From sequence record MH719082.1: a stretch of DNA of 64,000 nucleotides; one strand, 5' to 3'. Under the pieces are notes generated by a model that searched no databases, was not told where the DNA came from, and saw only the letters and a program-made list of their open reading frames with translations. This DNA is from Escherichia phage vB_EcoM_IME392. This document shows positions 43,944 to 64,000 of this stretch, piece after piece. How positions within the stretch are numbered: the stretch's first letter is position 1; each line of letters begins with the position of its first letter. A program made the position numbers and the translations under genes.

Positions 43944-46802
43944 ATGGTTAGCATAGTTAGAGGCATATCTGGGATTGCTCGTACAGAAGCTACCGATCCG
44001 ATTAAGGATGCCTCTGATTACGAGCATGCCAGGTCTAAATTGGAAGAAGATCTTATCGGGATCCGTTCTACGGTTAAGATACTCTCCAGCAACGATGTAG
44101 ATGTAGGTCTTAGCTCCGATGAAGTTAAGACCCTGAATACACTGATGGGTAAGTTTTACGGCAGGGCTAAGTTCTCTACCCAGGAAGCTGAGCAGCTGAT
44201 CTCCTTAAGAGATAAAGTCGGCCAGGTTGCGGATATGTACGCTACTGCCGAGGATCAAAAGGCCATCGCTGCGGAATCTTTACTCGACACCTATCAGTCA
44301 ATATTAAATGACTCTAGACTTACTCGTGGCGTCCGTATGACTGCTATGAGAGAACTGAGTGGGTTACTTCGGGTACTTAACGTATCCAATTCCTCACTTA
44401 GTACTATCAATATGCGGAAGAATAACCGCATCATTGAGCAAGCTAGAGCTGAGTTAGCCAATCAGAACGTAAAGATTAAATATTCTGATACGGTAAAGGT
44501 TGCTAACTTAACGAACAGGAGTAAGGATGAGAGGGATACTCTTGACAGATTTAACATACGTCAAACTGGCCGTAATTTAAGGGATTCGTTCCTTAATACC
44601 CCATCGCAGTTTTCCGTAGGTTCTGTCCGCAAGGAAGCACTCTCATCAGGTCTAGGTGCCTTAGGTTTAGGGGACCTGGATAGTGTATTCGGTATATCTG
44701 ATAAATTGGATGGTGCCATATCATCCATGTTCCGTAAAAGGAAAGATGAACCGGATACTACTGACGAAGAATTAAAGGCCATATCTCGAGAGATTCTTAA
44801 ATCAGAAAATAAACCCGATGGAGAATCTTCCACTGAGGCCTCTGCTAAAGTCGACGGTAAAGAGGCTAAGGTCGAGATTACTACTCCAGATGCTACTGTA
44901 AATCCAAAACCCAGTTTCGGACCTACTCCAGAAGAGGAGCAGAATCAGAAGCTGGACGAGATTAACAACAGCATTCGAGAGTTAATTAATGAGACTAGGT
45001 CTGGCCAGGACGAACTGTCCCGTAAGCAGACTCAGTTAATTAATGGTCAGTCTACTTTGGTGGATATCGATGAGCAACTGGTATCGGTAACCAGAGCTAA
45101 TGGAAGAGCTAACCATGAAGAAATTGATCCTTTCGCTAACGAACAGAAGCAGGGTGCTGCTGATTCTATCTTTGATGATCTTATCGGTGGTGGCGATGAG
45201 CGTGGCCGCAGAGGTAGAAGAGGTAGGGGAAGAAGAGGCAGGACTCGTCTCGGTCGTGGACTCAGCAGGTTCGGTAGACTCGGCAGGATGGCAGGCAGAG
45301 CAGTCGACGCAGCTGCCACCGGAGGACTTGCGAGAGGTGCTGCTCGTGGAGGTGGTGCGCTTCTGAGAGCTGGCCTTAAGGGAGCTAAGTTCATCCCAGG
45401 AATCGGGTTAGCCGTAACTGCTGGTATGGGAGTTTATGATGCTGTCTCTGGATGGGATGGAGATAAGGCTAAGGAACTATTCGGTAGTGACGATAACTGG
45501 GCTAAGGCTGGCTCATCTGCAGCCTCACTATCCTCTGGGTTAACTTTAGGGTTAGCATCTCCAGAGGATGTAGTGAATGTCGCTAAGTCTGCTGTAGATA
45601 CTGTACAGAAGACATACGAAGGTGCGGTTAATATTGCAAATAACCTAACGGCGTCATTCTCAGGGATGTATAAGAATGCGTCCGACTGGCTTTCCAAGTC
45701 CGTCTCCGATACATCTAAGTGGTTCTCCGATAGTTACGACTCAGTAACCAAGTCCATAACCGGAGAAATCAGTGAATTATCTAACTTGGTTACAGAATTT
45801 ATAAATGATCCTATGAAGTCTATAGGTGAAGGTATTGGTGGCCTATTTGATTGGCTATCAGACCTACCGGTAGTCGGTGACTTCTTTAAAGGACTTAAGA
45901 AAGGAGCTGTTGCGGTATCCAATGGGATTATCGGAGCAGGTGCCTCCATAGTTAATGGCGCAAGAGCTGTTGGTGGAATAATATCCAATGGTTATGACAG
46001 TGCTGTTGATGCCGGTGGTAGTATCCTACAGTCCGCTATGCAGAATGCCTCTCGATACCTCCCAAGCTCTAAGGAGCAGACGGAGCGTAAGAACAATCTG
46101 GCAGAGTATGCTAAGCAGCAGGGAATCGACGATAAAGAATTGGCTCTATTCATGGGCCAGGTTCAGCATGAATCTGGTAACTTCCGTTATAATAAAGAAC
46201 TAGCCTCTGGTAAAGCGTACGAGGGTCGTAAAGACCTGGGTAACGTAAATCCTGGGGACGGGGTTCGTTATAAGGGTCGTGGCTGGATACAGCTTACTGG
46301 TAGGGCTAATTACCAGAAATATGGTAAGATGCTGGGTATAGATCTCGAAAATAATCCGGAGATGGCTGAAGATCCTGAAATCGCCAATAAGTTGGCGGTT
46401 GCATATTGGAAAGATCGTGTGCGACCACAGCTGGAGAAGAAAGGATCTACTGTTGAAGTGGCAACTAAGGCAGTCAATGGTGGGTATAATGGGTTAGCAG
46501 ACCGTGCTGCATATACTGCAGAATGGATGAAGAATGGTTCTGATGCTGAGGCATCTAAGTCAGGAGCTACCCAGGTTGCTCAGAACGTACCTCTCGAGGT
46601 CCCTAAAGCTCCTACCCCTACAGACGATGTTAATAAACAACGTCAAGATCAGAATAATCAATTGGCTGCTATGGCTGCTGGTTCCACCAGAAATCAGGAT
46701 CCTGCTGCTATAACTCCTAACGTACCTTCAGTGGTTACGGATAAGAGTGACACTATTGATGACTATGGTCTGGCGTTCTTCAACAAGATGGTGTTCTCAT
46801 AA
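43944..46802 (+). CDS. Tail tape measure protein with C-terminal GH19-like peptidoglycan hydrolase domain
   Basis: 952 aa. N-terminal coiled-coil, central Arg/Gly repeat (GRRGRRGRGRRGRTRLGRG), Gly-rich hydrophobic segment, and C-terminal FMGQVQHESGNF...YKGRGWIQLTGRANY (GH19/lysozyme-like motif). Sits between the tube/chaperone and baseplate genes. Confidence 0.65.
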   Translation: MVSIVRGISGIARTEATDPIKDASDYEHARSKLEEDLIGIRSTVKILSSNDVDVGLSSDEVKTLNTLMGKFYGRAKFSTQEAEQLISLRDKVGQVADMYATAEDQKAIAAESLLDTYQSILNDSRLTRGVRMTAMRELSGLLRVLNVSNSSLSTINMRKNNRIIEQARAELANQNVKIKYSDTVKVANLTNRSKDERDTLDRFNIRQTGRNLRDSFLNTPSQFSVGSVRKEALSSGLGALGLGDLDSVFGISDKLDGAISSMFRKRKDEPDTTDEELKAISREILKSENKPDGESSTEASAKVDGKEAKVEITTPDATVNPKPSFGPTPEEEQNQKLDEINNSIRELINETRSGQDELSRKQTQLINGQSTLVDIDEQLVSVTRANGRANHEEIDPFANEQKQGAADSIFDDLIGGGDERGRRGRRGRGRRGRTRLGRGLSRFGRLGRMAGRAVDAAATGGLARGAARGGGALLRAGLKGAKFIPGIGLAVTAGMGVYDAVSGWDGDKAKELFGSDDNWAKAGSSAASLSSGLTLGLASPEDVVNVAKSAVDTVQKTYEGAVNIANNLTASFSGMYKNASDWLSKSVSDTSKWFSDSYDSVTKSITGEISELSNLVTEFINDPMKSIGEGIGGLFDWLSDLPVVGDFFKGLKKGAVAVSNGIIGAGASIVNGARAVGGIISNGYDSAVDAGGSILQSAMQNASRYLPSSKEQTERKNNLAEYAKQQGIDDKELALFMGQVQHESGNFRYNKELASGKAYEGRKDLGNVNPGDGVRYKGRGWIQLTGRANYQKYGKMLGIDLENNPEMAEDPEIANKLAVAYWKDRVRPQLEKKGSTVEVATKAVNGGYNGLADRAAYTAEWMKNGSDAEASKSGATQVAQNVPLEVPKAPTPTDDVNKQRQDQNNQLAAMAAGSTRNQDPAAITPNVPSVVTDKSDTIDDYGLAFFNKMVFS

Positions 46803-48945: not shown

Positions 48946-49605
48946 ATGATAAATATTATAGACCTCATGCGTAATGGTCAGGATCCTCTGAAGGCCATCC
49001 ATAAGGGAGTAGTCGTTGATAATAACGACCCTGCCCAAAAATGCAGAGTAAAGGTTAGGGTTCCTGGGGTACTCGATGGTGATGGTATCCCATGGGCCAT
49101 TCCTATTGCATCTGCATTCCTGGGGGATGGGGAATCTGACCGTGTGGAAATACCAGAAGTAGGTACCGAGGTATCTGTCTCGTTCCCCACAGGAGATCAG
49201 CATTTCCCATTCTACACTGGGAGATGGCACTCTAAGGAAGTCCCGGAAGAGTTTAAAGAGAATTATCCCAATAGGTACGGATTTAAGGATTCTACCGGCA
49301 CTGTATTCTATATAGATAAAGTGTCTAAGGAAGTTCATTTTAAGCACTGTTCTGGATTTCAGTTCGATATTGACCAAGAGGCTAATTTTACTCTCACCAC
49401 CCCAGGAGGAGGTAAGGTCGATATCGCTAAAGCTCTGGAGATAATCGCCAAAGAGCATATCAAACTGGATACTCCTCTTGTCGATGGAACAGGAGAGATC
49501 AAGGACAAGGTTCGCAAGATGTCGGAAGATCGCGCTATCTACAACGGTCACGATCATGTTGGCGATAGTGGTGGTAGTACATCTCCGCCTAACTCTAAAC
49601 AGTAG
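48946..49605 (+). CDS. Baseplate central spike protein (gpV/Mu gp45-like)
   Basis: 219 aa. N-terminal OB-fold-like pattern GVVVDNNDPAQKCRVKVRVPGVLDGDGIPWAIPI...VGTEVSVSFPTGDQHFPFYTG, typical of gpV-type spike proteins. Confidence 0.6.
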   Translation: MINIIDLMRNGQDPLKAIHKGVVVDNNDPAQKCRVKVRVPGVLDGDGIPWAIPIASAFLGDGESDRVEIPEVGTEVSVSFPTGDQHFPFYTGRWHSKEVPEEFKENYPNRYGFKDSTGTVFYIDKVSKEVHFKHCSGFQFDIDQEANFTLTTPGGGKVDIAKALEIIAKEHIKLDTPLVDGTGEIKDKVRKMSEDRAIYNGHDHVGDSGGSTSPPNSKQ

Positions 49606-49609
49606 GTTC

Positions 49610-49981
49610 ATGATGGTTCAGCCAATTTATCGAGATATAGACCAGACCCTTAAGCGTAACTCGCTTAAGGATGGTGATGCAGTATTTCAGGCCATAGTTA
49701 ATGTACTGAAGACTCGCAAAGGTACCAGAATGTTTAATATGGAGTTTGGTTCTAATCTCGAAGATATCATCATGGAACCATGCGACGATATCACTGGTCT
49801 GCAAGTTTATGCAGAGGTGGTCGACGCTGTTACGAGATGGGAGCCAAGAGCCCTGTTAGACCGAGGTAAAACTAAGGTTACTCCTGATCCGGATAATCAC
49901 ATATTCTGGGTAGACTTATGGTTCTCTGTCAAAGGAATCGATGGTCAAGAATTTAACTACGAGGTGGGTCTGAAACGATGA
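49610..49981 (+). CDS. Baseplate wedge protein (gpW/gp25-like)
   Basis: ORF track 49478..49981; ATG at 49610 gives about 123 aa with NMEFGSNLEDIIMEP and AVTRWEPRA, as in gp25/gpW-family proteins. Confidence 0.6.
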   Translation: MMVQPIYRDIDQTLKRNSLKDGDAVFQAIVNVLKTRKGTRMFNMEFGSNLEDIIMEPCDDITGLQVYAEVVDAVTRWEPRALLDRGKTKVTPDPDNHIFWVDLWFSVKGIDGQEFNYEVGLKR

Positions 49982-51351
49982 ACATAATTCAAGATTCCTC
50001 TCTATCCTTCGACCAGATCAGAACGGATTTAGAGAACTATATTAAGTCTCTTCCAGATTATGAGACTAAGTGGAAGGACTTCTACGAGGCTGGTGCTGGC
50101 GAAACAGTACTTAATACTGGTGCTGGTATCACTGCATTCTTAGCTTACGCTGCCTACATGAACCGCCGAGATTCGTTACTGGATTTCGGCAATATGACCT
50201 CGACCATCGTGTCTATTGGGTCTGCATTAGGTTACGTGTATAATCGTAAATCTGCTCCTCTTCTCCAGATTACGTTTACATCCACTGAGCAAGTTTACTG
50301 GGATAAGGAAGATCCTATCGGTAACTACATGGGTCGTTCTCTGGTTCTCACCAACTCCACCCAAATAGAAGTTGGCGTGAACACCATTGTGGTTGCTATA
50401 GGTGATTGGGTCTCTCAGGAGATAACCATCACTGATGCTAAGGATTTTAAAGGTATCAACGTACCTATTCAGCCTGATAATAATCTGGTTAACCTGTATA
50501 TCGATGGAGAGAAGATCTCCTACACCACAGCTGCGGAAGATATGGATTCGGACAATGTCCTAATTCGTTCTTACTTCTCGGGAATATTCATTATCTTCGG
50601 GAACGGGTCACTGGGCAGGAAGGCTGCTGTTAACCAGGTACTTAAGATAGAGTACGTTGCTCCCGCTGATAAACTAGATGGGTTAACTCTGGATCCTACC
50701 AAGATTCAGTTATACGTTGAAAATACGAGTAACTCATCTGAAGTTAAATACCCTGGGTCAGACCCTGATAGTCCTGAGAAGATCGTTGCTATTGCTCCTG
50801 GTTATTATTCAGCCAAGAGACGTCTGGTTACTCTGGACGATTACGCTTCGATAGGTGCTTCTTATCAGGGTGTGGTAAGTGCTAACGCTGCTCTTCCGAC
50901 TACTTCTTGCTGCTCGGTTAACGTCTCGTACCTACGAGCCGATGAATTAACCATGAATGATGCTATGAAGGCAGATTTCGAGAAGTATATGCTGCAGTAC
51001 GCCATGCTGGGTTCTAACATAAATGTTATAGACCCTATCAGGATCATGGTCGATGTTAAGATGCGAGTGGTTATTGACTCCGGAGCTGATACGGATGCCA
51101 TTACCAAGAAGATTCGTGAAACCATAAATAAAAAGTGCATGACTAACGGTGCATTCTTTACGGTTAACGATATGACTCTGCCAGAGTCTCTTCGCGTTAG
51201 ACGTATCTACATTAAGCAGCCTATTCTTGACCGACAGGCTAAGTACAATGAGTACTATAAGCTCCGCAAACTGGAGATCAGTTATACGGAAGATCGGACT
51301 CTGGTAGATTCCGGAGGCACAGATAAGAATGCGGGGTATGAGTATGGCTAA
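49978..51351 (+). CDS. Baseplate protein J-like (gpJ/gp6-like)
   Basis: 457 aa, ATGA overlap with the W-like gene; position and size fit the V-W-J-I module. Confidence 0.5.
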   Translation: MNIIQDSSLSFDQIRTDLENYIKSLPDYETKWKDFYEAGAGETVLNTGAGITAFLAYAAYMNRRDSLLDFGNMTSTIVSIGSALGYVYNRKSAPLLQITFTSTEQVYWDKEDPIGNYMGRSLVLTNSTQIEVGVNTIVVAIGDWVSQEITITDAKDFKGINVPIQPDNNLVNLYIDGEKISYTTAAEDMDSDNVLIRSYFSGIFIIFGNGSLGRKAAVNQVLKIEYVAPADKLDGLTLDPTKIQLYVENTSNSSEVKYPGSDPDSPEKIVAIAPGYYSAKRRLVTLDDYASIGASYQGVVSANAALPTTSCCSVNVSYLRADELTMNDAMKADFEKYMLQYAMLGSNINVIDPIRIMVDVKMRVVIDSGADTDAITKKIRETINKKCMTNGAFFTVNDMTLPESLRVRRIYIKQPILDRQAKYNEYYKLRKLEISYTEDRTLVDSGGTDKNAGYEYG

Positions 51352-52822
51352 GTTCAACACTCTAGATTACTTCTCTCCTAACCTTAGAGGGAACGAGTTA
51401 TATAAGTTCTTCTCGCAGGTGCTGGATCATGGTCTAGAGACTGTTGTCTTTCCGGAGATGGATAAAAATACGGCGATTTATGATCCTAGTAAACCGTCTT
51501 ATGATCCGATTTATATCCTGGAGCTACTGGGTCAACCAGACTTAGCAGATCTCATAACTACCGAGGTAGACCAGAACTCAGTATCTGTACTCCTCCCAAG
51601 TATCCTTGATAACAAGGGTATGAAGGATGGGGTTGATCTTATCTTTAAGCTGATAAATGTAGAGATAGAAGAGATATTGTATCAGAAGACTCCGGAAGGC
51701 TGCTCACTGGCAACCATCCTGCTTCCTAAGAACGTGATCTTGTCTACTCGGCAGATTAAGCTAATTGATCGTCTGTCGCGTAAGGTATTTCCGATATGCG
51801 TAAGACTTACCGGTATCGCTAACTGTCTTCCAGATGGCGTTGAATCTCTCGGAAGCGCCTCCTTGGACACCAGTTGGTTGCTAGACACATCAATCCTGGA
51901 TGGTTCAGTAGGTATACGAGTCCCAGATATTTCGGATACTCTATGGCTGCGATTCTGTCTCGATATTATGTCGGAGATGGAAGTACCTCTTGAAGTGTTG
52001 ATTGATCGCTTCTCGGATCGTCTGATGAACTCTTATCTGACTGTATTCGATAGGAGAACTATCAAGCTAGATAATGGTCTTATTCTGGATATGGGTACAT
52101 ACTTAGATCTCCAGAATACCGACACTGCTCACAGCAGACTCTATAGCTCATTGGCTAAGTTTAATGTAGATTTAAGCGCCGATTCCAGAACTACTGAGAT
52201 TGAGTCCTTACTGGACTTATCAGACTTGGTAGCTGGGTTGGAGTTTAAGTCCTCTATGCTGCGTGAGATCTTCCTGTTCTTGGATATCGACCTCTCAGAG
52301 TTCGGATTCCAGAATTACATGGATAGGAAGATAGAGCACTTATCCAAGGGGATAGAGCAAGTAAATTATGGATATGAGGGTGGTAATTACGCTGATGGTT
52401 ACGATTTAACTAACTATCAGGGTTTCGAATACGAGAACTTATACGTAATCCAATCTCATCGTGATGGCCAAACTCAGCGTAGCGGGACGGCTTATTACGG
52501 ATTGCCGGAAATAGACTGGCTACACTTCGAAGGTATGGACTTCATTAATGGGTCTTACCTGCTGGATGGTACTCGTTATCTTCACCAGGAGTTCATTAAA
52601 AAGATCAAAGTGTACGATTGGTATACTCATTGGTCTAGCTACCGAGAAGCTATGTTCCTAACCACTCATAAGACCGAAAGACTCTTAGAGAAACGGGATG
52701 GGACTATTCTCCATGACGGAACTTATAATCGCGGTGAGAAAGTAACTCGTTACGGATTCGAACCTCTGTACAACGACGTTATTAGTCACGATGATACTTA
52801 CTATCGCGATGCCAATCTATAG
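51329..52822 (+). CDS. Baseplate/tail protein (gpI-like position; possible fibre-attachment protein)
   Basis: 497-aa ORF following the J-like gene; true start may be the ATG at 51344. Confidence 0.4.
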   Translation: MRGMSMAKFNTLDYFSPNLRGNELYKFFSQVLDHGLETVVFPEMDKNTAIYDPSKPSYDPIYILELLGQPDLADLITTEVDQNSVSVLLPSILDNKGMKDGVDLIFKLINVEIEEILYQKTPEGCSLATILLPKNVILSTRQIKLIDRLSRKVFPICVRLTGIANCLPDGVESLGSASLDTSWLLDTSILDGSVGIRVPDISDTLWLRFCLDIMSEMEVPLEVLIDRFSDRLMNSYLTVFDRRTIKLDNGLILDMGTYLDLQNTDTAHSRLYSSLAKFNVDLSADSRTTEIESLLDLSDLVAGLEFKSSMLREIFLFLDIDLSEFGFQNYMDRKIEHLSKGIEQVNYGYEGGNYADGYDLTNYQGFEYENLYVIQSHRDGQTQRSGTAYYGLPEIDWLHFEGMDFINGSYLLDGTRYLHQEFIKKIKVYDWYTHWSSYREAMFLTTHKTERLLEKRDGTILHDGTYNRGEKVTRYGFEPLYNDVISHDDTYYRDANL

Positions 52823-52830
52823 GTGATTAG

Positions 52831-53598
52831 ATGAGCAATTATACTGGGGCATTTAACTTTCATGCTCAGGTGTACCAATTTGAAGAAAGTGATGTGGTTA
52901 AAGGTGGCCCGGACGGCATTGATAACGTGCCTCTTACCCAGCTGTCAGATCGTACGTTTTATCTTAAGGCTCTTGCTGACTTTACATTCCTTAAGCTATT
53001 CAATCTTAATCCTCTCGGCTCGTTCAAACAAGGATTCCAGATTAACGTGGCTGGGTATGCGGTCTTCGACGAGGCCTCCGGTAAGTGGTTTAAGTGGACA
53101 GGATCTCTACCTAAAGTAGTGGTTAAGTCTTCTAAGCCAGAAACTACTGGAGGTATCTATGATCCAACCACCAATCCGAGCGGTAAGTGGGTGGCTATTG
53201 ACTTCAGTGTTCTAGACCTTGGCGCTGGGGTTAAGATCCCTACAGCAGCTGCTCCTGGTAATCTGTATAGCGGTAAGTACAATCCAGCCTTCGTTAAGAT
53301 TGAGAATGTCTCCAATCTAGACATAGCAGAAGCCATATATACCAGACTAGGGAATGTGGTTACTGTTAATGGCAAGATCACTGCTTCTGCTACCGATGCC
53401 GGAGAAGTAATGAAAATAGGAATTGGCTTACCTATTAACGCTACCTTCTCAGATGACTCAAGCCTCTCAGGAGTTGGCGTTGGTATAGTAGCTGGTCAGA
53501 TTTATGCCGATGTGGACAGTAGTGTGGCTGTTCTTGAGATTAATCAGGGTAGTACAGACGAGCTGTCTCTGAGATACACGTTCTCTTACACTATATAA
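52831..53598 (+). CDS. Tail fibre/adapter protein with shared N-terminal attachment module
   Basis: 255 aa. N-terminal GGPDGIDNVPLTQLSDRTFYL and SGKWFKWTGSLPKVVVKSSKPETTGGIYDP are shared with ORFs 53611, 59505 and 62616. Confidence 0.5.
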   Translation: MSNYTGAFNFHAQVYQFEESDVVKGGPDGIDNVPLTQLSDRTFYLKALADFTFLKLFNLNPLGSFKQGFQINVAGYAVFDEASGKWFKWTGSLPKVVVKSSKPETTGGIYDPTTNPSGKWVAIDFSVLDLGAGVKIPTAAAPGNLYSGKYNPAFVKIENVSNLDIAEAIYTRLGNVVTVNGKITASATDAGEVMKIGIGLPINATFSDDSSLSGVGVGIVAGQIYADVDSSVAVLEINQGSTDELSLRYTFSYTI

Positions 53599-53610
53599 TA
53601 GGATATCGAA

Positions 53611-54528
53611 ATGGGTACTTATCAGGGTAAAAATCAGTACGTAGAGGACATCTATACCTTCGAACGTACTGACAAAGTGTCGGGTGGTGATGACGGTATT
53701 GATAACGTACCCATTAAGAATCTTACCGACAGAACTACATATCTCCGTAGTCTAGCATTGAATTCATTCCTGGATATCTATGGGATTAACCCAGTAGGTA
53801 CTTTCGGGATAGGATTTGATCTCCAGGACTCTGGGGATGGTGTGTATGACGAGGTGTCTGGCAAGTGGTATTACTGGCTAGGCTCCTTCCCCAAATCTGT
53901 TGCCGAGAATTCTTCTCCGGAAGATACTGGTGGTATCTTCGACCCAGAAAGTAATCCAGATGGATTATGGACTGAGGTAATTCCGGTAAACCAGCGTCAG
54001 GTAGATATGGCTGCTCGGGCATTCCGAGTTAAGACCGAAGAAGTCCAGTTCATGAAAGTAGGTCGTCCTCTCGACGGCTTTCGTGTATTGTATGACTTAG
54101 CTTCCCAGGAAGCTTATCGTTTACCTATGGATATCCCTGAAGGATCAACTATTGTTAGCTTAACAGACGGAGGGTGGCTAGAGCATAGCAATGGCAGGGT
54201 AAACTTATCTGCTTACGCCGTCGAATTAGAAGAGTATAAGTACTTTACCGGAGGCGACTTCAGTACCGGCTTTACTCTACGTCAGAACCACTGCATAGTT
54301 ATGCATGATGGTGTTCTGTATCGCTGGGATGGCGATTTTCCGAAGACCGTAAATGCTAACAGTACTCCAGAATCAGACGGTATTGGTGATGGTAAATGGG
54401 TTCCTGTTAAGACTGGTGCCCTGTATCGCTATGCTACTGTTGCCCAGTTAGATAGTGTTGAGAATGCTCTAACTACTCGCATAAACGAAGTAGAGAGCGC
54501 CGCTTTTGTTAACGCATTACTGTTCTAA
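53611..54528 (+). CDS. Tail fibre/adapter protein (paralogue of 52831..53598)
   Basis: 305 aa. GGDDGIDNVPIKNLTDRTTYL and SGKWYYWLGSFPKSVAENSSPEDTGGIFDP, plus a second copy of the module near the C-terminus (VLYRWDGDFPKTVNANSTPESDGIGDGKWVPV). Confidence 0.5.
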   Translation: MGTYQGKNQYVEDIYTFERTDKVSGGDDGIDNVPIKNLTDRTTYLRSLALNSFLDIYGINPVGTFGIGFDLQDSGDGVYDEVSGKWYYWLGSFPKSVAENSSPEDTGGIFDPESNPDGLWTEVIPVNQRQVDMAARAFRVKTEEVQFMKVGRPLDGFRVLYDLASQEAYRLPMDIPEGSTIVSLTDGGWLEHSNGRVNLSAYAVELEEYKYFTGGDFSTGFTLRQNHCIVMHDGVLYRWDGDFPKTVNANSTPESDGIGDGKWVPVKTGALYRYATVAQLDSVENALTTRINEVESAAFVNALLF

Positions 54529-54537
54529 GGAATACCC

Positions 54538-54879
54538 ATGGCAGCTAAATTTAAACGAGCTAGCGCTACGCTAACTAAATCTGAATCTACCATTTATACT
54601 ACTCCGGCTACTGGTGCTATAATCGTTGGAATCCTGGCAGCCCATAATGGTGTTACAGATGCTGCAGCTCAGTTTCAGCTTAAGATTAAACCTGCATCTG
54701 GAAATGATGTATACCTGCTAGGTAAAGACACTAATCTTCCTCAGAAGTCGGCATTGAATATCGATTCTGCTAAGGTAATTCTCATGGATGGTGATCAGGT
54801 AGTAGCTTCAGCATCTGCTGTAGATACTTCTAATAACTCGAACATGGTAGACCTGACTCTTTCCATTGTGGAGAACTAA
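54538..54879 (+). CDS. Hypothetical tail protein
   Basis: 113-aa ORF with AAGGA RBS. Confidence 0.4.
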   Translation: MAAKFKRASATLTKSESTIYTTPATGAIIVGILAAHNGVTDAAAQFQLKIKPASGNDVYLLGKDTNLPQKSALNIDSAKVILMDGDQVVASASAVDTSNNSNMVDLTLSIVEN

Positions 54880-54880
54880 T

Positions 54881-56227
54881 ATGGGTGGTTATATTGGTTT
54901 CAATCCATCTGATGGTGCTGGTGAACTTCGTAATGAATTGACTCCTAAGATCAAGAACAACCAGGATAACATCATCGAGTTGTGGGCGAATGACTTAGCC
55001 GATTGTGGTTACAATCTGGCAGCTACTTTCGAGTTCGGTGGTATCTTATCTAACCGATTCGATCTGGTAGTATCTCTTGATCGTCAGCGTGCATATTCAT
55101 GGAAGGGTAACTTTCCAGTAGATATTGCAAACGCACCTATCACCCATTCTAATTGGGTACCTTGGTCGATCGACCAAATGGGTGCTGGTAACTTATTGGA
55201 AGTTAAGTGGGTATCCTCTCGTAAGTTATTAGGGTCACCATTATGGGGTGGATTCGTAGCAGCTGATGGTGGTATCTTCTCACGTATCTTGTATCCTGAT
55301 ACTTGGGCAGCAGTCAATGCTGGACTAGTACAAGTATGTCCTGAAGCTGACTGGGTAGCTGATCCTACTAAGCGCCACTGCTATACTACTGGTGATGGTA
55401 CTACTACCTTCCGAGTACCTGACTTAAATGGTGCGTACCGTCATCCTAGTGACTCCTCTAAGAACTCCATTCCAGGATTATTCTTACGTGGTGATAATGG
55501 TAGTGACTACGGATACGTCCAGCGTAATGCTGCACCTAATATTACTGGTATTATACAAGGTCGTACTTCTGGTACTTATGGTCGACTATTCAGTCAATCT
55601 ACTATTAATAGTGGAGCATTACAAACTAGTGATGAGAATGGTGGTGAATTCGCTACTGGTACAGTAACTGCATCGACTCCATCTGATCGTATGAGTAAGT
55701 TACTATTTGATGCATCAAAATCACTTACACCAGGTGCTGAGGCTTACGGTCGTGCTGAACCTAATGGTGCACCTGCTGATGAAGTCCGACCTAACAGTGC
55801 AGTAGGTTGTTACGCTATCCGTCTACAAGGTCGAGTTGTGAATCCCGGTACGGTGGATCTGTTATCATTAGTTGATACAGTTGCAGGTATGACTATAGGT
55901 AATACACCTAGCAGTAATCAGATTCCTAACATGAAGCATTGGACTCGTGGAGGGTCAGGTCGTGCATGGTGGAGGAAAGAACCTGATGGATTCATTAGAC
56001 AGGGAGGATTCTTTACTGCTAATGTTAGACCTGGTTCAGGTACTAAAGTGTACGTTGATGTAACATGGGCTATACCATTCCCTAATGAATGTAACTCAGT
56101 AACCGTAGGTGATGCTGGATTCGGTGATGGTAATATGTGGGGCGCCACTAATATCACCAGGACTGGAGCTCGTTTATGGTGTAGCGCAGTAGGCGAGGGT
56201 GGTTACTACTTGGCTGAGGGCTACTAA
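54881..56227 (+). CDS. Tail fibre protein with phage tail-collar-type domain (receptor-binding protein 1)
   Basis: ORF track 54866..56227; ATG at 54881. Contains YPDTWAAVNAGLVQVCPEADWVADPTKRHCYTTGDGTTTFRVPDLNGAYRHP, a tail-collar-type motif. Followed by a Tfa-like chaperone gene. Confidence 0.55.
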   Translation: MGGYIGFNPSDGAGELRNELTPKIKNNQDNIIELWANDLADCGYNLAATFEFGGILSNRFDLVVSLDRQRAYSWKGNFPVDIANAPITHSNWVPWSIDQMGAGNLLEVKWVSSRKLLGSPLWGGFVAADGGIFSRILYPDTWAAVNAGLVQVCPEADWVADPTKRHCYTTGDGTTTFRVPDLNGAYRHPSDSSKNSIPGLFLRGDNGSDYGYVQRNAAPNITGIIQGRTSGTYGRLFSQSTINSGALQTSDENGGEFATGTVTASTPSDRMSKLLFDASKSLTPGAEAYGRAEPNGAPADEVRPNSAVGCYAIRLQGRVVNPGTVDLLSLVDTVAGMTIGNTPSSNQIPNMKHWTRGGSGRAWWRKEPDGFIRQGGFFTANVRPGSGTKVYVDVTWAIPFPNECNSVTVGDAGFGDGNMWGATNITRTGARLWCSAVGEGGYYLAEGY

Positions 56228-56655
56228 TGGCTAATTATCTATATAGCAATTCTCGTAAATCGTTCTATCCAGTATCGTTAATAGAAAATTATCAAAATAG
56301 CATAAACGGATTACCTGAAGATTTAGTAGAAGTCAGTGATTCTGACTTTAATGAATTTTCTCAGAGTCGTACTAATGAGTGCTGTAATTTAACTGAATCA
56401 GGATTCGAGTGGATTCCTAAAGGTCCTGAACCAGTATCAGTCGAAGATGCTCATCGTATCAAGAGTATCTTGATAAATAGTGCTAATAAGACTATTAGTA
56501 CCTGGCAGACTAAGTTGATGCTTAATAGACTATCTGACGAAGATAAAGTCAAACTGAATGCTTGGTTGGACTACATCGATGAGCTGGAAGCTATCAATCC
56601 TGACTCAGTAGAAGATACATCAGCTATCCCGTGGCCTACTGCTCCTGAAGCATAA
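56227..56655 (+). CDS. Tail fibre assembly protein (Tfa-like chaperone) 1
   Basis: 142 aa. C-terminus LSDEDKVKLNAWLDYIDELEAINPDSVEDTSAIPWPTAPEA, paralogous to 58118..58726; lies directly downstream of a fibre gene. Confidence 0.55.
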   Translation: MANYLYSNSRKSFYPVSLIENYQNSINGLPEDLVEVSDSDFNEFSQSRTNECCNLTESGFEWIPKGPEPVSVEDAHRIKSILINSANKTISTWQTKLMLNRLSDEDKVKLNAWLDYIDELEAINPDSVEDTSAIPWPTAPEA

Positions 56656-56666
56656 AGAGGTATAAA

Positions 56667-58118
56667 ATGTCAAATGGATATATTGGTACCTACCCTAAAT
56701 TCGCTATTTATTCTCCTGAGAAATTGGCGAAAGGTACCACCACTAAGACTCTGCAGTATGCTCCAGGATCAGCTTATGCAATTCTGGTAGTAGTAGGCGG
56801 GGCGATTCAGGAACCTAACGTAGCCTATACTGTAGCAGGTAATGTCATTACTTTCACGGAGACGCTCCCGTACGATGGATGGGTTCAGTACCGTGGACTT
56901 GAAGGTAAGGATGCTACTGACTTTATCGCAGCTGCAGGTGATCCAGTACTATCAGCACGTTGGGCATTCTCACGTGATCATATCTGGGATGGATTCGTTC
57001 CACTAGATGGTCAGGAATTATCTCGTGCTATGTACCCGTCAGCATGGGAGGCTATCAATGCTGGATTAGTACCAGTCGAGGATGATGCTGCATGGTTGGC
57101 TGATCCCAAGAAACGTGCATCGTTTACTAAGGGTGATGGTACTTCAACATTCCGAGTACCTGACCTTAATGGTAAGTTGGGTGATTCTATAAAGGGACTG
57201 CACATCCGTGGAGATAATGGTGATTCAGCTCGTACCGGTAAAGTACTCCAGAATGGCGCTCCGAATATTACAGGATACACTAATTTATTAGGGTATAACA
57301 CATGGGCAAATAATGCCGGAGCGGCCAACGGTGCATTAAACTTAAGCCAGGGTTTAGCATTCTCCAACGGTACCGATTTAGTTGTAAACTCTTCTTACAG
57401 AGAATTAAGAGCTAATTTAGATGCATCTAAATCTAATGCATCTTATGGTCGTGACGGCACTGATGAAGTGCGTCCTAATGCAGCTATTGGATGCTGGGTA
57501 GTCAAGTTATTCGCAGGTATCGCTAATGCTGGTGTAGCTGATCTGCAGCAAGTGCTAGTCACGTTAGCTGGTAAGATGGATAAGACCAAGTACGAATTCG
57601 GTGTACCAATGATTGGCGTACCATTCTACTGGCCATCGGATAAGATGCCTGATGAAGTATATCCTGAGCTGAAAGGTATGCACTTCATCCAAGCTCGTGG
57701 TGATAACTTCGATGCTGAACTGTATCCTAAGTTAGCTACTGTTTATCCTAATAATAAGTTACCAGATTTACGTGGTGAATTCATCCGTGGTTGGGATGAC
57801 GGACGTGAAGTGGATACTGGACGAGCTCTGCTATCGCGTCAATCACATTCAATTATTGAACACTCACACTATATGGAGTTGTGGACAGGTGACGTACTTC
57901 ATTCTGGGGATGCTAGAGATGGGGTAAATGCAGGAGTACTGGCTACCTATGGTGATGGTGGGTCAATTAAATCTGACGAATCAGGTAATCATGTACCCTC
58001 CTTAGTACGAGCTATTAATACTCGTAATATTAATCGTTACAACGTAAATAGCGAAAATATAAGCACAGAAAACCGTCCACGTAACGTAGCATATAACATC
58101 ATTGTAAGGGCATTATAA
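56667..58118 (+). CDS. Tail fibre protein with tail-collar-type domain (receptor-binding protein 2; paralogue of 54881..56227)
   Basis: 483 aa. YPSAWEAINAGLVPVEDDAAWLADPKKRASFTKGDGTSTFRVPDLNGKL and KLPDLRGEFIRGWDDGREVDTGR. Confidence 0.55.
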   Translation: MSNGYIGTYPKFAIYSPEKLAKGTTTKTLQYAPGSAYAILVVVGGAIQEPNVAYTVAGNVITFTETLPYDGWVQYRGLEGKDATDFIAAAGDPVLSARWAFSRDHIWDGFVPLDGQELSRAMYPSAWEAINAGLVPVEDDAAWLADPKKRASFTKGDGTSTFRVPDLNGKLGDSIKGLHIRGDNGDSARTGKVLQNGAPNITGYTNLLGYNTWANNAGAANGALNLSQGLAFSNGTDLVVNSSYRELRANLDASKSNASYGRDGTDEVRPNAAIGCWVVKLFAGIANAGVADLQQVLVTLAGKMDKTKYEFGVPMIGVPFYWPSDKMPDEVYPELKGMHFIQARGDNFDAELYPKLATVYPNNKLPDLRGEFIRGWDDGREVDTGRALLSRQSHSIIEHSHYMELWTGDVLHSGDARDGVNAGVLATYGDGGSIKSDESGNHVPSLVRAINTRNINRYNVNSENISTENRPRNVAYNIIVRAL

Positions 58119-58726
58119 TGAGCATTGAATTTAACGATCAAGGTTTTGCCACCACTTCTGGTAAAGTGATGGTTTATAACTACAATGAAGATACTCGTGA
58201 ATTCACATTTAATCGTGAAGAGTTTATCTACGTAGGTGTATCGGTACCAGCTCACTCCACAATCGTTCCAGTGCCTGCAGAACGTGAAGGATATGCTCGA
58301 GTGTATCATGAAGATACCAAGAAGTGGGAATATGTAGAAGATCACCGTGGAGTAGAAGTTTACTCAAAAGCTGATCAAACTAAAGTAACTATCCAGGAAC
58401 TCGGACCTATCGACGATATCTACACTACGATTGCTCCTACTTCAATCCATGATAATTGGGATGAAGATACTGGTGCATGGGTACTAGATGAAGTTGCTGA
58501 GCACGAAGCTAAGGTGGTTGCGGCTGATGCCAAGAAAGTAACATTGATTGAGGATGCTAATGCTTATATCAATAGTAAGCAGTGGCCATCCAAACTGGCA
58601 ATGGGCCGACTGAGCGATGCTGATAAAGTCAAGTTCAATTTGTGGCTAGATTATCAGGAGGAAGTAGAAGCTATTGAAACTACTGATCCTGATACTATCG
58701 TATGGCCAGAAGCACCTGCTAAGTAA
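58118..58726 (+). CDS. Tail fibre assembly protein (Tfa-like chaperone) 2
   Basis: 202 aa. C-terminus LSDADKVKFNLWLDYQEEVEAIETTDPDTIVWPEAPAK. ATG overlaps the upstream stop (TAATG). Confidence 0.55.
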   Translation: MSIEFNDQGFATTSGKVMVYNYNEDTREFTFNREEFIYVGVSVPAHSTIVPVPAEREGYARVYHEDTKKWEYVEDHRGVEVYSKADQTKVTIQELGPIDDIYTTIAPTSIHDNWDEDTGAWVLDEVAEHEAKVVAADAKKVTLIEDANAYINSKQWPSKLAMGRLSDADKVKFNLWLDYQEEVEAIETTDPDTIVWPEAPAK

Positions 58727-58801
58727 TATTTATTAAGGGGTAGTTATGTCAATTAATTACATGACTCCAGATAGTATCGTGATTGTAAGTGAGGTGTCAA
58801 T

Positions 58802-59425
58802 ATGAGCCTCACCCGTCTTAAGTATTTAATGAACGAAGGTACAGATGCTGAAGTTGAAGCGTATCTACGCCAGCTGGGTATCGGTAATGGAGCTCCATTA
58901 ATAGGAGTACCGTTCCCGTGGGTTCATCCTACCAAGATGCCTGATGAGATATTTACTTCAATGAAGGGTATGCGATTTCTGAAGATGAATGGTCAGACAT
59001 TCGATCCAGAAACATACCCAGAACTGGCTAAGCTATGGACAACTAATCAGTTACAAGATCTACGTGCACAATTTATCCGTGGATGGGATGACGGTCGAGG
59101 CATGGATGCAGGACGAACGATCAATACTGGTCAGTCAGATTCTGCCCCAGAAATATCTGGTTGGTTCAGGACTGTTAATACTGAGAATGCATCAATCTGG
59201 GAAAGCATAACATCAGGATTTGGTTCTGGAGCTCTCTACGGTACTAATACTAAAGGTCAGTATTATAGATTAGCGGGACTTCCAATGGATATTAACGCTA
59301 CCTATAAGTATCCTACAGTAATTAACTTCTTGGCATCACGATCATCTTCAGTATATGGACGAAACGGCACCAATGAAATTGTACCTAAAAACGTAGCATT
59401 TCTGTACATCGTTCGAGCTAAATAA
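58802..59425 (+). CDS. Short tail fibre-like protein with tail-collar-type motif
   Basis: 207 aa. IGVPFPWVHPTKMPDEIF and LQDLRAQFIRGWDDGRGMDAGR. Confidence 0.45.
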   Translation: MSLTRLKYLMNEGTDAEVEAYLRQLGIGNGAPLIGVPFPWVHPTKMPDEIFTSMKGMRFLKMNGQTFDPETYPELAKLWTTNQLQDLRAQFIRGWDDGRGMDAGRTINTGQSDSAPEISGWFRTVNTENASIWESITSGFGSGALYGTNTKGQYYRLAGLPMDINATYKYPTVINFLASRSSSVYGRNGTNEIVPKNVAFLYIVRAK

Positions 59426-59504
59426 ATAAATAGCTACAATAGCAGGTGCAACTTGTACATGGGTTATGATAAACGAAGTGTTGACAATATCATAGGGTGA
59501 TTAA

Positions 59505-62492
59505 ATGTCTTATAATCCAATTGTAGAAGGGTCAACTTGGCCCGAGACTATTCGCCGCTTAGAAAAGACGGATAGGGCAGAAGGCGGTCAACTAGTTACT
59601 AATTCTAAGGATGAACCAGTATCCGGACATATTAATCATCCAATAACCCAATTAGCTACTAGAACCTCCATTTTAAAAAAGTCTAATTTATCGATAATTA
59701 ATAATACTAAAGAACAGTGGAAGTTATTACTCGGTGACTTAGGACTAACTCTTGTTGGCACTTTTGAAGAAGGTGCTACAGTAAACAGTAAAAAGGATGC
59801 TGTCTGGCATATTGATGGTGGCCAGTGCTACGTGTGGGGTGGCGTGCTCCCTAAGACTGTATATGCTAACTCCTCACCGCTAACTACTGGTGGTGTCTCT
59901 TCTGATGCTTGGGTTAGTATTGGTGATACCGCACTGCGAGGGCAAATATCAGACCCGGATGGTGCAACAAAATACCCCGAATTGCAGATTGCTCGATGGC
60001 GTGACATTTTCGACCCTCGTGGTTGGGGAGCTAAAGGTGATGGATTAGTCGATGATACTGTGGCTCTTAATAATCTGTTAAGCGCTGCTCCAGTAGGTCA
60101 GAAAATTAATGGTAACGGCAGAACCTATAAAGTATCCGCACTTCCAGATATTAGCAGATTCGTTAACACTCGTTTCGTTTATGAGCGTATTCCTGGCCAG
60201 CCGCTTTATTATGTATCTGACGAGTTTGTTCAGGGTGAGTTAATTAAAATAACCGATACCCCTTATTACAATGCTTGGCCTCAGGATAAAGCGTTCGTTT
60301 ACGACGATGTTATTTACTGTCCGTTCATGGCTAGCGATCGGCACGGGGTTAGCAGGCTTCATGTATCCTGGGTTCGCTCAGGTGATGACGGACAGACCTG
60401 GACGACCCCGGAGTGGCTAACTGACCTACACCCTAATTACCCAACAGTTAACTACCACTGTATGAGTATGGGGGTGATGCGTAATCGTCTCTTTGCGATG
60501 ATTGAGACCCGTACTTTAGCAGCTAACGCATTAGTGACCTGTGAGTTGTGGGATCGCCCCATGTCCCGTAACTACCATCTGACAGGTGGTATAACAAAAG
60601 CTGCCAACCAGCCTGTGGCTGTAATTACCATCCCTGAACACGGTCTTTTTGCTGGGGATTTTGTTAACTTCTCGAACTCTGGGGTGACTGGCGTTTCTGG
60701 GAATATGACTGTAACTTCAGTTATTGACCGCAACACGTTTACAGTTACCACGCCAAATCAACAAGCATTCGACCAAAATAACTCTACCAGCCGCTGGCAT
60801 ATGGGGACATCGTTCCATCAGTCACCATGGCGTAAAACCAGCCTTGGATTGATCCCTATGGTTACCGAGGTTCACAGTTTTACCGCCATCAATAACGATT
60901 CATTCATGATGGGGTACCATCAGGGTGATGTTGCTCCGCGTGAAGTAGGTATGTTGTATTTCCCTGATGCATTTAACAATCCTGGGCATTATATAAAACG
61001 ACGTATCCCTGCTGAATATGAGCCGGATGCGGCAGAACCCTGTGTTAAATATTTTGACGGTGTTCTTTATGTTGTAACCCGTGGAACTCGGTCGGACCGT
61101 CTGGGTAGTTCGCTTCATCGTAGTAATGATTTGGGTATAACCTGGCAATCATTGAGGTTCCCGAATAATGTCCACCACTCCACCCTGCCATTCGCTAAGG
61201 TAGGAAACGAACTGATTCTTTTCGGCACTGAACGCGCCGACAACGAGTGGGAAGCAAACGCACCCGACCAGCGATATTTTAGTTCTTACCCACGAACGTT
61301 TTACACGCGAGTGAACCTCGACACCTGGAACCTGGATAATACTCAGTGGGTGAATATCACTGACCAGATTTATCAGGGTGGTATTGTTAACTCTGGCGTC
61401 GGTGTCGGATCGGTCGTCGTGAAAGATAGTTATATCTATTACATGTTCGGTGGGGAAGACCATCTGAACCCATGGACATATGGAGATAACTTAGAGAAAG
61501 ACCCATTCAAATCAGACGGTCATCCCTCAGATTTGTATTGTTACAAAATGCAGATCGGTCCAGACAATCGTGTTTCTCGTGATTTCAGGTACGGTGCTGT
61601 ACCTGACAGAGCGGTTCCAGTGTTTTTTGATACGAATGGAGTTCGCACTGTTCCTGCTCCAATGGAATTTACAGGGGATTTGGGTTTAGGTCATGTGACC
61701 ATTAGAGCCAGCACCAGTAGTAACATTCGCTCTGAAGTTTTAATGGAAGGTGAGTATGGGTTTATCGGGAAATCTGTACCGACTAATAACCCTGCAGGTC
61801 AGCGCATCATATTTTGCGGAGGCGACGGTACCAGTTCTTCTACTGGTGCACAGATTACGCTTTACGGTGCGAGTAACACAGCTTCTCGCAGGATAGTTTA
61901 CAACGGAGATGAGCATCTGTTTCGGAGTGCTGATGTTAAGCCTTATAACGATAACGTCATTGCGCTTGGTGGGCCTAGCAACCGTTTCACCACTGCATAC
62001 CTCGGAAGCAACCCTATTGTTACTTCTAACGGAGAGAAGAAAACAGAGCCGGTAGTTTTTGATGATGCTTTTTTAGATGCTTGGGGCGATGTTCATTACA
62101 TCATGTATCAGTGGTTGGATTCTGTACACCTGAAAGGAAATGACGCTAGAATCCATTTTGGCGTAATTGCTCAGCAGATCCGCGATGTATTCATTGCTCA
62201 CGGTCTGATGGATGAGAACAGCACGGATTGCCGCTATGCTGTTCTGTGTTACGACAAATATCCTCGCATGACAGACATGGTGTTCTCTCACTATGAAATA
62301 GTTGAACACACTGACGAGGAGGGTAATGTCACTACCACGGAAGAACCTGTATACACCGAGGTGGTTATTCACGAAGAGGGTGAGGAGTGGGGTGTGAGGC
62401 CTGATGGAATTTTCTTTGCTGAGGCAGCATTCCAGAGAAGAAGACTGGAAAGAATCGAAGCCAGACTTTCCGATCTTGAAAAGAAGCAGTAA
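59505..62492 (+). CDS. Tailspike: endosialidase-like (sialidase beta-propeller with Asp-boxes) with C-terminal intramolecular chaperone domain
   Basis: 995 aa. N-terminal adapter module (QCYVWGGVLPKTVYANSSPLTTGG); two Asp-box/BNR motifs SGDDGQTW and SNDLGITW; C-terminal region ending in the coiled-coil RRLERIEARLSDLEKKQ, typical of autoproteolytic chaperone domains. Confidence 0.65.
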   Translation: MSYNPIVEGSTWPETIRRLEKTDRAEGGQLVTNSKDEPVSGHINHPITQLATRTSILKKSNLSIINNTKEQWKLLLGDLGLTLVGTFEEGATVNSKKDAVWHIDGGQCYVWGGVLPKTVYANSSPLTTGGVSSDAWVSIGDTALRGQISDPDGATKYPELQIARWRDIFDPRGWGAKGDGLVDDTVALNNLLSAAPVGQKINGNGRTYKVSALPDISRFVNTRFVYERIPGQPLYYVSDEFVQGELIKITDTPYYNAWPQDKAFVYDDVIYCPFMASDRHGVSRLHVSWVRSGDDGQTWTTPEWLTDLHPNYPTVNYHCMSMGVMRNRLFAMIETRTLAANALVTCELWDRPMSRNYHLTGGITKAANQPVAVITIPEHGLFAGDFVNFSNSGVTGVSGNMTVTSVIDRNTFTVTTPNQQAFDQNNSTSRWHMGTSFHQSPWRKTSLGLIPMVTEVHSFTAINNDSFMMGYHQGDVAPREVGMLYFPDAFNNPGHYIKRRIPAEYEPDAAEPCVKYFDGVLYVVTRGTRSDRLGSSLHRSNDLGITWQSLRFPNNVHHSTLPFAKVGNELILFGTERADNEWEANAPDQRYFSSYPRTFYTRVNLDTWNLDNTQWVNITDQIYQGGIVNSGVGVGSVVVKDSYIYYMFGGEDHLNPWTYGDNLEKDPFKSDGHPSDLYCYKMQIGPDNRVSRDFRYGAVPDRAVPVFFDTNGVRTVPAPMEFTGDLGLGHVTIRASTSSNIRSEVLMEGEYGFIGKSVPTNNPAGQRIIFCGGDGTSSSTGAQITLYGASNTASRRIVYNGDEHLFRSADVKPYNDNVIALGGPSNRFTTAYLGSNPIVTSNGEKKTEPVVFDDAFLDAWGDVHYIMYQWLDSVHLKGNDARIHFGVIAQQIRDVFIAHGLMDENSTDCRYAVLCYDKYPRMTDMVFSHYEIVEHTDEEGNVTTTEEPVYTEVVIHEEGEEWGVRPDGIFFAEAAFQRRRLERIEARLSDLEKKQ

Positions 62493-62615
62493 ATAAAGAC
62501 TTTTACCGTAGGTAGGAGAAGGTAGAGGCTTCAATTTAAGATTTAACTTAAACTAATCACCACTCTAAAGTTACTAAGTGTTTGTACATCATGTAATATT
62601 TTATGGAGATCACCA

Positions 62616-64000
62616 ATGGGCGGTCGTTCTAAGTTATTTAGCGAACTGGGCGGAGCTCCTCTTAATACTTATCAGCATGATAACCAGACTCTCGATATTC
62701 GCGAGTTAGAAAATCAGCAGAAAGTATTAGACGAGACTCTTGCCGAAACAATAGGCAACGTTAACGAGTTGCAACAGACTGCTGGTCAGTCTATGTATAT
62801 CCTCGGTAACTATGCCTCCGGAATGGTGATCGAGAACGACCGCCAGTACGTCAGATATGATAATCTGCTGTACTATTGGACTGGTCCTGTACCGTTCACT
62901 ACCACCGGCAACTTCTACGAAGAATCCTACTGGACTGGTGGGGTACAGAGCGGTATCGAGTGGAGTTACGAGGTACAGGAAGATGGGGAATTCGAGTTTA
63001 ATATTCCTTACTCCTTTACCAACGTACGTCTATTCGTAGGTGGTGTCCGCCTTACTCGCGTAGAAGATTACACTATCGATGTGATTAATCGCAAGATCAC
63101 TCTGACTAAGGTTAAGCTGTCGAAGGGTGTCCTGGTGACTGCCGAGCTGAACTCTCGTGATGCTCTTAGCGTTACCCAGGATCGCATCGATAGCCTTACC
63201 AGAGAGATCTCAGAGAAAGTAGGTTTCGTTAATTACAAACTTACTGATCTGTCTGAAGGTCAGAGCCTGACTCTCACTACCAGAGTCCAGACTGTAAGCT
63301 TCTCAGTAAATGGGGAGTATTATAAATGGGATGGCGTTCTTCCTAAAGTTGTTAATTATGGAGATCCGGAGCCATCTCAATCTGAACAGGGGACTGGTAA
63401 GTGGATTCCTGTAGGTTCTGGTGCTCTTAAGTCAGAGCTCATGACTGCTGGCGAAACTACTGGTGCTGCTATTGTCTATCTGAGATATGGTGGCACGGTG
63501 GCTGATGGTATTCGATACATCACCCCAGAAATGGCTCGAGCTAAAGGCGACGGTACTACGGACGATACAGCAGCTCTTCGCTCTGCTGTTACCCTGGCTA
63601 AGACTTATGGTCTTAAGCTTATGGGTATGGGTACTTACAAGATCTCTAACCAATCGGTGGATATTTCCGGGGTAGTGATCGAGAACCTAACCATAGTTGG
63701 TACCGGTGCTAGTTCACAGCTGCTGGTTAATGGCGATACGGACATAACTAAGCTGAACCTTAGCAAATGCGGTATTCGTCACATCAACGGTATCTTTAAA
63801 CTCGACCAGTTCGAAATTAATGACTGTTCTGCGACTGCTGCTCTGCTGTGTCAGCAATTAGCAGCTAATAGCCAACTGTTCGTCACTAATGGTATTATGC
63901 GTCGCTGTAACTATGGTTACCTCCGTCAGGGTAGTCCTGCATCTTCCAAGCCGCTCACTGCGACTCTGCTACAGAACTTACAGTTCTTCGACATGAAGAG
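62616..64000 (+). CDS. Second tailspike, right-handed beta-helix depolymerase-like (pectate-lyase-fold), 3' end beyond window
   Basis: ATG at 62616 with GGAG RBS; open to the window end (not in ORF track). N-terminal adapter module (EYYKWDGVLPKVVNYGDPEPSQSEQGTGKWIPVG), then GDGTTDDTAALRSAVTLA, the characteristic start of pectate-lyase-type beta-helix glycanase domains. Confidence 0.55.
   Translation, partial: MGGRSKLFSELGGAPLNTYQHDNQTLDIRELENQQKVLDETLAETIGNVNELQQTAGQSMYILGNYASGMVIENDRQYVRYDNLLYYWTGPVPFTTTGNFYEESYWTGGVQSGIEWSYEVQEDGEFEFNIPYSFTNVRLFVGGVRLTRVEDYTIDVINRKITLTKVKLSKGVLVTAELNSRDALSVTQDRIDSLTREISEKVGFVNYKLTDLSEGQSLTLTTRVQTVSFSVNGEYYKWDGVLPKVVNYGDPEPSQSEQGTGKWIPVGSGALKSELMTAGETTGAAIVYLRYGGTVADGIRYITPEMARAKGDGTTDDTAALRSAVTLAKTYGLKLMGMGTYKISNQSVDISGVVIENLTIVGTGASSQLLVNGDTDITKLNLSKCGIRHINGIFKLDQFEINDCSATAALLCQQLAANSQLFVTNGIMRRCNYGYLRQGSPASSKPLTATLLQNLQFFDMK

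Follow-up and report, generated by a model that had tools for sequence, protein, structure and literature searches.

A predicted K1F-type endosialidase tailspike on an EP_H11-like myovirus anchor in Escherichia phage vB_EcoM_IME392

The endosialidase gene and its product

The 64,000-nucleotide (nt) stretch of Escherichia phage vB_EcoM_IME392 analysed here (record MH719082.1; hereafter the window) carries near its end a tailspike gene whose product had been described, in an original prediction made from the letters alone, as endosialidase-like. The open reading frame (ORF) named there, on the plus strand and encoding 995 amino acids (aa), was found exactly so in the ORF list (Table 1), and its product belongs to phrog_1171, tail spike, in the PHROG database. 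The description was borne out and indeed understated, the protein being a close relative of the characterised K1F endosialidase that carries all four endosialidase Pfam domains together with Peptidase_S74. We take this Pfam End_* set to denote phage endosialidase (endo-N-acetylneuraminidase), CAZy family GH58. The match lies far beyond chance, because End_beta_propel was recovered with an E-value of 2.3e-205 and the K1F endoNF structures 3gvl and 1v0e, the best hits of a PDB sequence search, with E = 0 at 1340 bits (aa 171–840). Next in that search came the phi92 endosialidase (4hiz, E 7.7e-231), along with the K1F intramolecular chaperone (3gw6, E 1.8e-175, aa 720–994); the N-terminal region (~aa 80–190) matched the N-terminal domains of other spikes (4oj5, 5w6h, 5w6f, 6nw9 and 9vvr among the matches), including the CBA120 tailspike proteins (TSPs) TSP1, TSP3 and TSP4. 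An antisense ORF (62073..62534, 153 aa) and further internal ORFs were rejected as spurious, since the coding frame that they overlap is strongly conserved.

Aligned globally to full-length K1F gp17, at a constant offset of 70, the protein showed 82.7% identity to the crystallised K1F endoNF across aa 176–840. Identity to K1F was 19% over aa 1–76, 48.5% over aa 77–175 (K1F aa 147–245), 79–87% in the propeller, 94% in the stalk and 93.5% in the chaperone domain. The K1F catalytic residues H350, R549, E581, R596 and R647, as given in a deep-mutational-scanning paper (PMC12632334), correspond to H280, R479, E511, R526 and R577 of the query and are all identical, as is the supporting network in the K1F alignment (Q330, D331, H527, S528, K585, N699); the position mutated in the R647A chain 3gvj was aligned to R577. 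Both Asp-boxes that had been pointed out earlier were located, SGDDGQTW at aa 292–299 (nt 60378–60401), aligned with the same motif at position 362 of K1F endoNF, and SNDLGITW at aa 540–547 (nt 61122–61145), aligned with SRDIGQTW at 610. From the 82.7% identity to a characterised enzyme, we infer endo-cleavage of alpha-2,8-linked polysialic acid.

The C-terminal part of the protein is consistent with an autocleaving endosialidase. Its chaperone domain type depends on a dyad of Ser and Lys in which the Lys follows five residues after the Ser (PMC3742440); the query has S841/K846 in the context IVT/SNGEKK (slash marking the bond concerned), as against S911/K916 in IVT/SNGERK of K1F, and the boundary between mature protein and C-terminal domain in the K1F record falls at the position equivalent to T840/S841. 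Self-cleavage is predicted between these two residues. A GVIAQ trimerisation motif is present at aa 886–890, and the terminal RRLERIEARLSDLEKKQ, which had been likened to a short coiled coil of such domains, was found inside a helix modelled at aa 966–994, within a segment whose identity to the K1F chaperone (3gw6) is 93.5%.

An AlphaFold2 monomer model, built from a 31-sequence alignment and used for fold identification only, had a mean predicted local distance difference test score (pLDDT) of 68, with most of the propeller at 80–94 and the TD1-type domain at 76–91. Compared with the PDB by Foldseek, the model retrieved endoNF (E 7e-94), the phi92 endosialidase (E 2e-66) and the K1F chaperone 3gw6 (E 1.8e-28), and after these bacterial and trypanosomal sialidases, which are exosialidases. 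The checks proposed with the original prediction, in so far as they were run here, thus gave an alignment to K1F in which all listed catalytic and autocleavage residues are kept, and a predicted structure with a sialidase fold; a non-sialidase fold or lost catalytic residues, either of which was to count against it, were not seen. Taken together, these comparisons indicate that the gene product is a genuine, apparently intact endosialidase of the K1-capsule-cutting kind.

Anchor, junctions and receptor-binding cluster

The endosialidase gene lies in the genome of a contractile-tailed phage, with genes for a tail sheath, for a 952-aa protein with a C-terminal lysozyme/endolysin-type domain that is taken to be the tape measure, and for a baseplate wedge protein adjoined by a gene for a 497-aa protein (Table 1). 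This backbone is ~94% identical to Escherichia phage EP_H11 (OP688485, 111 kb, unclassified), the sole backbone match among GenBank phages (megablast), and the similarity ends at window position 52096, within the gene for the 497-aa protein and just before the receptor-binding cluster. EP_H11 has been placed among putatively T-modified phages in papers that are silent on its tail, and a literature search for 'endosialidase' plus 'hypermodified' returned nothing relevant.

Sister phages with the same gene order are represented by L005 and L006, metagenomic contigs taken from Logan assemblies. At the endosialidase gene, their homology to the window covers only the first 72 codons, returning 56 nt past the stop codon; most of the interval in between matches endosialidase genes of other phage groups (Table 1). 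Third codon positions have a GC content (GC3) of 0.28 across the anchor and 0.54 across the endosialidase body, compared with 0.40–0.48 in backbone genes. On the same anchor, a sister-contig protein (P0054, 678 aa) shares only aa 1–196 with the query (56%) and has a different body, and in EP_H11 a homologous anchor (49% over aa 1–59) heads a 560-aa protein. Because the sister contigs have a different enzyme on the same anchor, we read the endosialidase as a head swap on the lineage anchor within a multi-spike receptor-binding cluster. In a collection of 5.8 billion protein clusters there was no full-length relative, the best match being 93.5% identical over aa 147–994 and coming from a 76-kb contig, and a scan of IMG/VR with the N-terminal 175 aa gave no close anchor relative, only one locus (L007) at 34% identity; the combination of anchor and endosialidase, two parts known separately, therefore has no precedent in the collections searched.

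Table 1 Features of the window and nucleotide matches across the junctions. Positions are those of the 64,000-nt window.
Feature	Position	Strand	Product or segment	Basis or closest match
Endosialidase tailspike gene, complete	59505..62492	+	995 aa plus stop, ATG start	ORF list; Pfam, PDB, PHROG matches
Lineage-specific N-terminal anchor, putative virion/adaptor docking stub	59505..59720	+	aa 1–72	sister-contig nt match, GC3, pLDDT
TD1-type Tail_spike_N domain and linker helices	59721..60029	+	aa 73–175	PF18668 aa 85–141, E 2.4e-15; PDB matches
Endosialidase N-terminal extension (End_N_terminal)	60030..60230	+	aa 176–242	PF12218 E 1.2e-35; 77.6% to K1F
Six-bladed beta-propeller catalytic domain (End_beta_propel)	60231..61556	+	aa 243–684	PF12217 E 2.3e-205, profile positions 1–366/367
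Beta-barrel (lectin-like) domain inserted in propeller (End_beta_barrel)	60564..60812	+	aa 354–436	PF12195 E 3.6e-40
Stalk, triple beta-helix / beta-prism (End_tail_spike)	61563..62024	+	aa 687–840	PF12219 E 7.7e-78
C-terminal intramolecular chaperone domain (Peptidase S74)	62025..62489	+	aa 841–995	PF13884 'Chaperone of endosialidase' aa 844–901, E 1e-08
Junction map	48999–54561			L005, 94.6% nt
Junction map	59479–59720		26 nt upstream and first 72 codons	L005/L006, 92.6% nt
Junction map	59902–62497			YX22 (Ackermannviridae) 87%; K1F 78% nt
Junction map	60018–62497			UE-S5a (Gamaleyavirus) 89.4% nt
Junction map	62548–64000			L006, 94.2% nt
Two head-less tailspike-N-terminus-like proteins	52831–53598, 53611–54528	+	255 and 305 aa	PHROG tailspike N-terminal matches
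Small ORF	54538–54879	+	113 aa	
Fibre gene / tail-fibre-assembly gene	54881–56227 / 56227–56655	+		
Second fibre gene / tail-fibre-assembly gene	56667–58118 / 58118–58726	+		
Fibre tip	58802–59425	+	207 aa	resembles C-terminus of second fibre
Second tailspike gene, 5' part, continuing beyond window end	62616..64000	+	open for 461 codons	not in ORF list, cut by window end
Tail sheath gene	40203–42002			
Gene taken to encode the tape measure	43944–46802		952 aa	C-terminal lysozyme/endolysin-type domain
Baseplate wedge protein gene	49978–51351			
HMUDK_hel protein gene	1740–2711	−	323 aa	Pfam E 3e-35
BCCT-family transporter gene	5577–6959	−	460 aa	Pfam E 1e-92
Phosphoesterase/ATPase protein gene	13374–16139	−	921 aa	calcineurin-like phosphoesterase and SMC/AAA_23 ATPase
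tRNA-Met (CAT) and tRNA-Arg (TCT) genes	26105–26180 and 26650–26725	−		

The cluster itself holds several further candidate receptor-binding genes. The two head-less proteins (255 and 305 aa) are encoded by adjacent paralogues, 49% identical across their first 123 aa, and are paralogous both to endosialidase aa 14–140 and to the N-terminal part of the single 780-aa spike of EP_H11; both are kept in sister contig L005, each with PF18668 there, and they may be branching adaptors of the receptor-binding complex. The fibre cassette (54529–59504, plus strand; GC3 0.29–0.32) is missing from EP_H11 and from L005, and compared with GenBank phages it matched only short patches (coverage ≤5%) in lambdoid side-tail-fibre genes. 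For the first fibre gene, the listed TTG start at 54866 is probably wrong, and the ATG at 54881 fits better. Downstream of the endosialidase, the second tailspike matches phrog_6117, 'colanic acid degradation' (E 1.3e-38), and is 94.2% identical at the nucleotide level to the gene of an L006 protein of 873 aa with the Pfam domain WcaM. In L006, three more receptor-binding genes are present. An octamer, TTGTACAT, present between genes on either side of the endosialidase gene, was rejected as a motif, given four copies in the window against 2.15 expected, a count reached in 14 of 100 shuffles.

Elsewhere in the window, all on the minus strand, lie further genes of some interest (Table 1). The phage appears to encode a 5-hmdU DNA kinase (5-HMUDK), as a 323-aa protein matches Pfam HMUDK_hel; hypermodified thymidine has been proposed for the EP_H11 group, in the discussion of which a preprint states that the associated 5-HMUDK 'could not be detected'. 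A transporter of the betaine/carnitine/choline family (BCCT), unusual cargo for a lytic phage, has an EP_H11 homologue annotated as 'high-affinity choline uptake protein', and a link between this transporter and the DNA modification chemistry would be speculation. The 921-aa protein, with its N-terminal calcineurin-like phosphoesterase and SMC/AAA_23 ATPase, may be read as a fused SbcCD/Mre11-Rad50-like nuclease, and two tRNA genes complete the set.

Proposed mechanism, host and alternative explanations

We consider it highly probable that the gene product is a homotrimeric endo-alpha-2,8-sialidase tailspike, grafted onto an EP_H11-like myovirus anchor and directed at the K1 capsule. By homology, the chaperone domain (aa 841–995) would drive trimerisation and folding of the stalk after translation and would then be released by Ser841/Lys846 self-cleavage at the T840/S841 bond, leaving a mature spike of ~840 residues. 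The propeller, through E511, R526 and R577 with H280 and R479, would cut polysialic acid, with the beta-barrel and stalk offering extra polymer-binding surfaces, and the virion would thereby bind and tunnel through the capsule of E. coli K1. The spike is probably fixed to the EP_H11-like baseplate via its first ~72 residues and the TD1-type domain, possibly by docking on the two putative adaptors encoded upstream, much as in the branched complexes that tailspikes form in Ackermannviridae and in G7C (PMC11414711); the receptor-binding apparatus would then be branched and multivalent, with the spike as one of its arms. The enzymatic body (from ~aa 73/133 to 995) was probably gained by recombination from another K1 phage, ousting a different enzyme of the kind that the sister phages have on this anchor.

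With regard to the host, polysialic acid of K1 or K92 type had been suggested, of which the K1 part stands (82.7% to the K1F type) and the K92 part is less supported. K1 is the best-supported substrate, and K92 less so, because identity to the phi92 enzyme is only ~51–52%, far below that to the K1F type. Phages with the most similar genes had K1 strains as their isolation hosts (UTI89, O18ac:K1:H7, 'K1 LU_100' and the avian pathogenic E. coli strain IMT5155). The further suggestion that the capsule indicates the host range is supported for K1 as a receptor, but K1 by itself does not define that range: it is probably one of several receptors, because the phage has at least one further tailspike, a pair of complete fibre genes and also a shorter ORF resembling a fibre tip.

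Several observations weigh against this assignment to the K1 capsule and to a grafted spike. Within the enzyme body, conservation is lowest in the beta-barrel domain (71% identity to K1F), so that fine specificity (O-acetylated K1, K92) could differ. This divergence, which extends to parts of the propeller (71–79% to K1F for barrel and propeller parts together) and is accompanied by a fall in nucleotide identity to K1F to 63–68% mid-gene, would also suit an active endosialidase of shifted preference, for the alternating alpha-2,8/2,9 polymer of K92, for O-acetylated K1 or for the polysialic acid of another species, in a phage whose host is not classical K1. As phi92 (the 4hiz match) illustrates, an endosialidase on a multivalent myovirus can serve K92 hosts. 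However, all checked catalytic and substrate-network residues are the same as in K1F, and the identity of ~51–52% to the phi92 enzyme compares with 80–94% to enzymes of phages isolated on K1 strains, which makes such a shift, in our judgement, very unlikely.

Among the points on the other side of the ledger is also the junction, as aa 73–132 have no nucleotide-level match to either parent, so that the crossover can be given only approximately. Together with the lack of a full-length homologue in the 5.8-billion-cluster collection, which leaves the combination without a track record, this could be taken to indicate a recent recombinant that binds without cleaving, or whose head is incompatible with the anchor so that no spike assembles. 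Yet the frame is intact for 995 codons with every functional residue kept, the divergence of 6–13% from the nearest donors has brought no frameshift or stop, the model folds the TD1-type domain with confidence (pLDDT 76–91) and the sister phages use the same design of constant anchor and variable head; a binding-only or non-functional spike is, in view of this, extremely improbable. The model was poor for the stalk, where pLDDT is low, and for aa 1–66 of the anchor, where it falls below 50, for which reason the mode of attachment is purely inferred, although low scores are expected of an intertwined trimeric stalk and of an attachment peptide. Finally, scans of 54400–62700 gave no signal for sigma-70 promoters (16 sites against 19.5 expected) or for intrinsic terminators (8 against 4.8).

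If the spike is the K1-directed, grafted endosialidase that we favour, infection of K1-encapsulated E. coli is predicted, probably among other hosts. Endosialidases serve as the models among capsule depolymerases, and therapy aimed at K1 with phages or enzymes is built on them; the present case adds a virion type to the endosialidase backbones met in our searches, namely T7-like, 811-aa and P22-head-binding-domain types, N4-like, Ackermannviridae, phi92-like and ~47-kb phages. With breakpoints that are sharply drawn, the anchor kept, the head replaced and the right junction just past the stop codon, the locus offers a clean natural template for engineered spike swaps on this myovirus lineage. 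The enzyme family is an ordinary and well-understood one, here on a rare backbone. Understanding of endosialidase action is unchanged, and the main value lies in a natural example of a head swap and in a predictor of host range. It is a doubtful, more far-reaching proposal that this is the first endosialidase on the EP_H11-type lineage, with its proposed hypermodified thymidine, and that it is mounted via an undescribed anchor-and-adaptor system with two head-less TSP-like hubs; were this true, and were the beta-barrel to shift specificity, the result would be a restriction-resistant, multivalent phage for K1 or variant polysialic acid, useful against neonatal-meningitis and avian pathogenic E. 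coli.

Comparison with known endosialidase and tailspike systems

From the TD1-like region to the C-terminus, the query has the same domain order as K1F endoNF (gp17; 1v0e, 3gvl, 3ju4; chaperone 3gw6), and shares with it the catalytic residues, both Asp-boxes, the Ser/Lys dyad and the site context IVT/SNGE. The K1F protein, at 1064 aa compared with 995 aa here, differs in its T7-gp17-like N-terminal particle-binding domain for a podovirus tail, in place of the EP_H11-like myovirus anchor. The closest enzymatic bodies are those of Gamaleyavirus (N4-like; UE-S5a and relatives, and the metagenomic proteins P0001 and P0002) and of YX22 (Ackermannviridae), with 92–94% aa identity for P0001/P0002 and, at the nucleotide level, 89% for UE-S5a and 87% for YX22. 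In these phages, too, a second depolymerase spike accompanies the endosialidase, a K5 lyase adjoining it in UE-S5a, but their N-terminal attachment modules and virion types differ entirely, homology beginning only at query aa ~134–196.

In being a myovirus with an endosialidase beside other spikes and fibres, the phage resembles phi92 (4hiz) and Phapecoctavirus, and the tailspike N-termini of Phapecoctavirus are ~40% identical to query aa 15–141; the enzymatic body of phi92, however, is ~51–52% identical, and its backbone genome is unrelated at the nucleotide level. With TSP1–4 of CBA120 (Ackermannviridae) and gp63.1/gp66 of G7C, the query shares a TD1/Tail_spike_N domain (PF18668) near the N-terminus, within spike genes that stand in a row and combine conserved N-terminal modules with exchangeable C-terminal heads. 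No XD (gp10-like) domains were identified here, the adaptors giving only TSP N-terminal PHROG matches and no XD-directed search of them having been made. In contrast to CBA120 and G7C, the cluster described here includes two separate head-less TSP-like proteins, of 255 and 305 aa.

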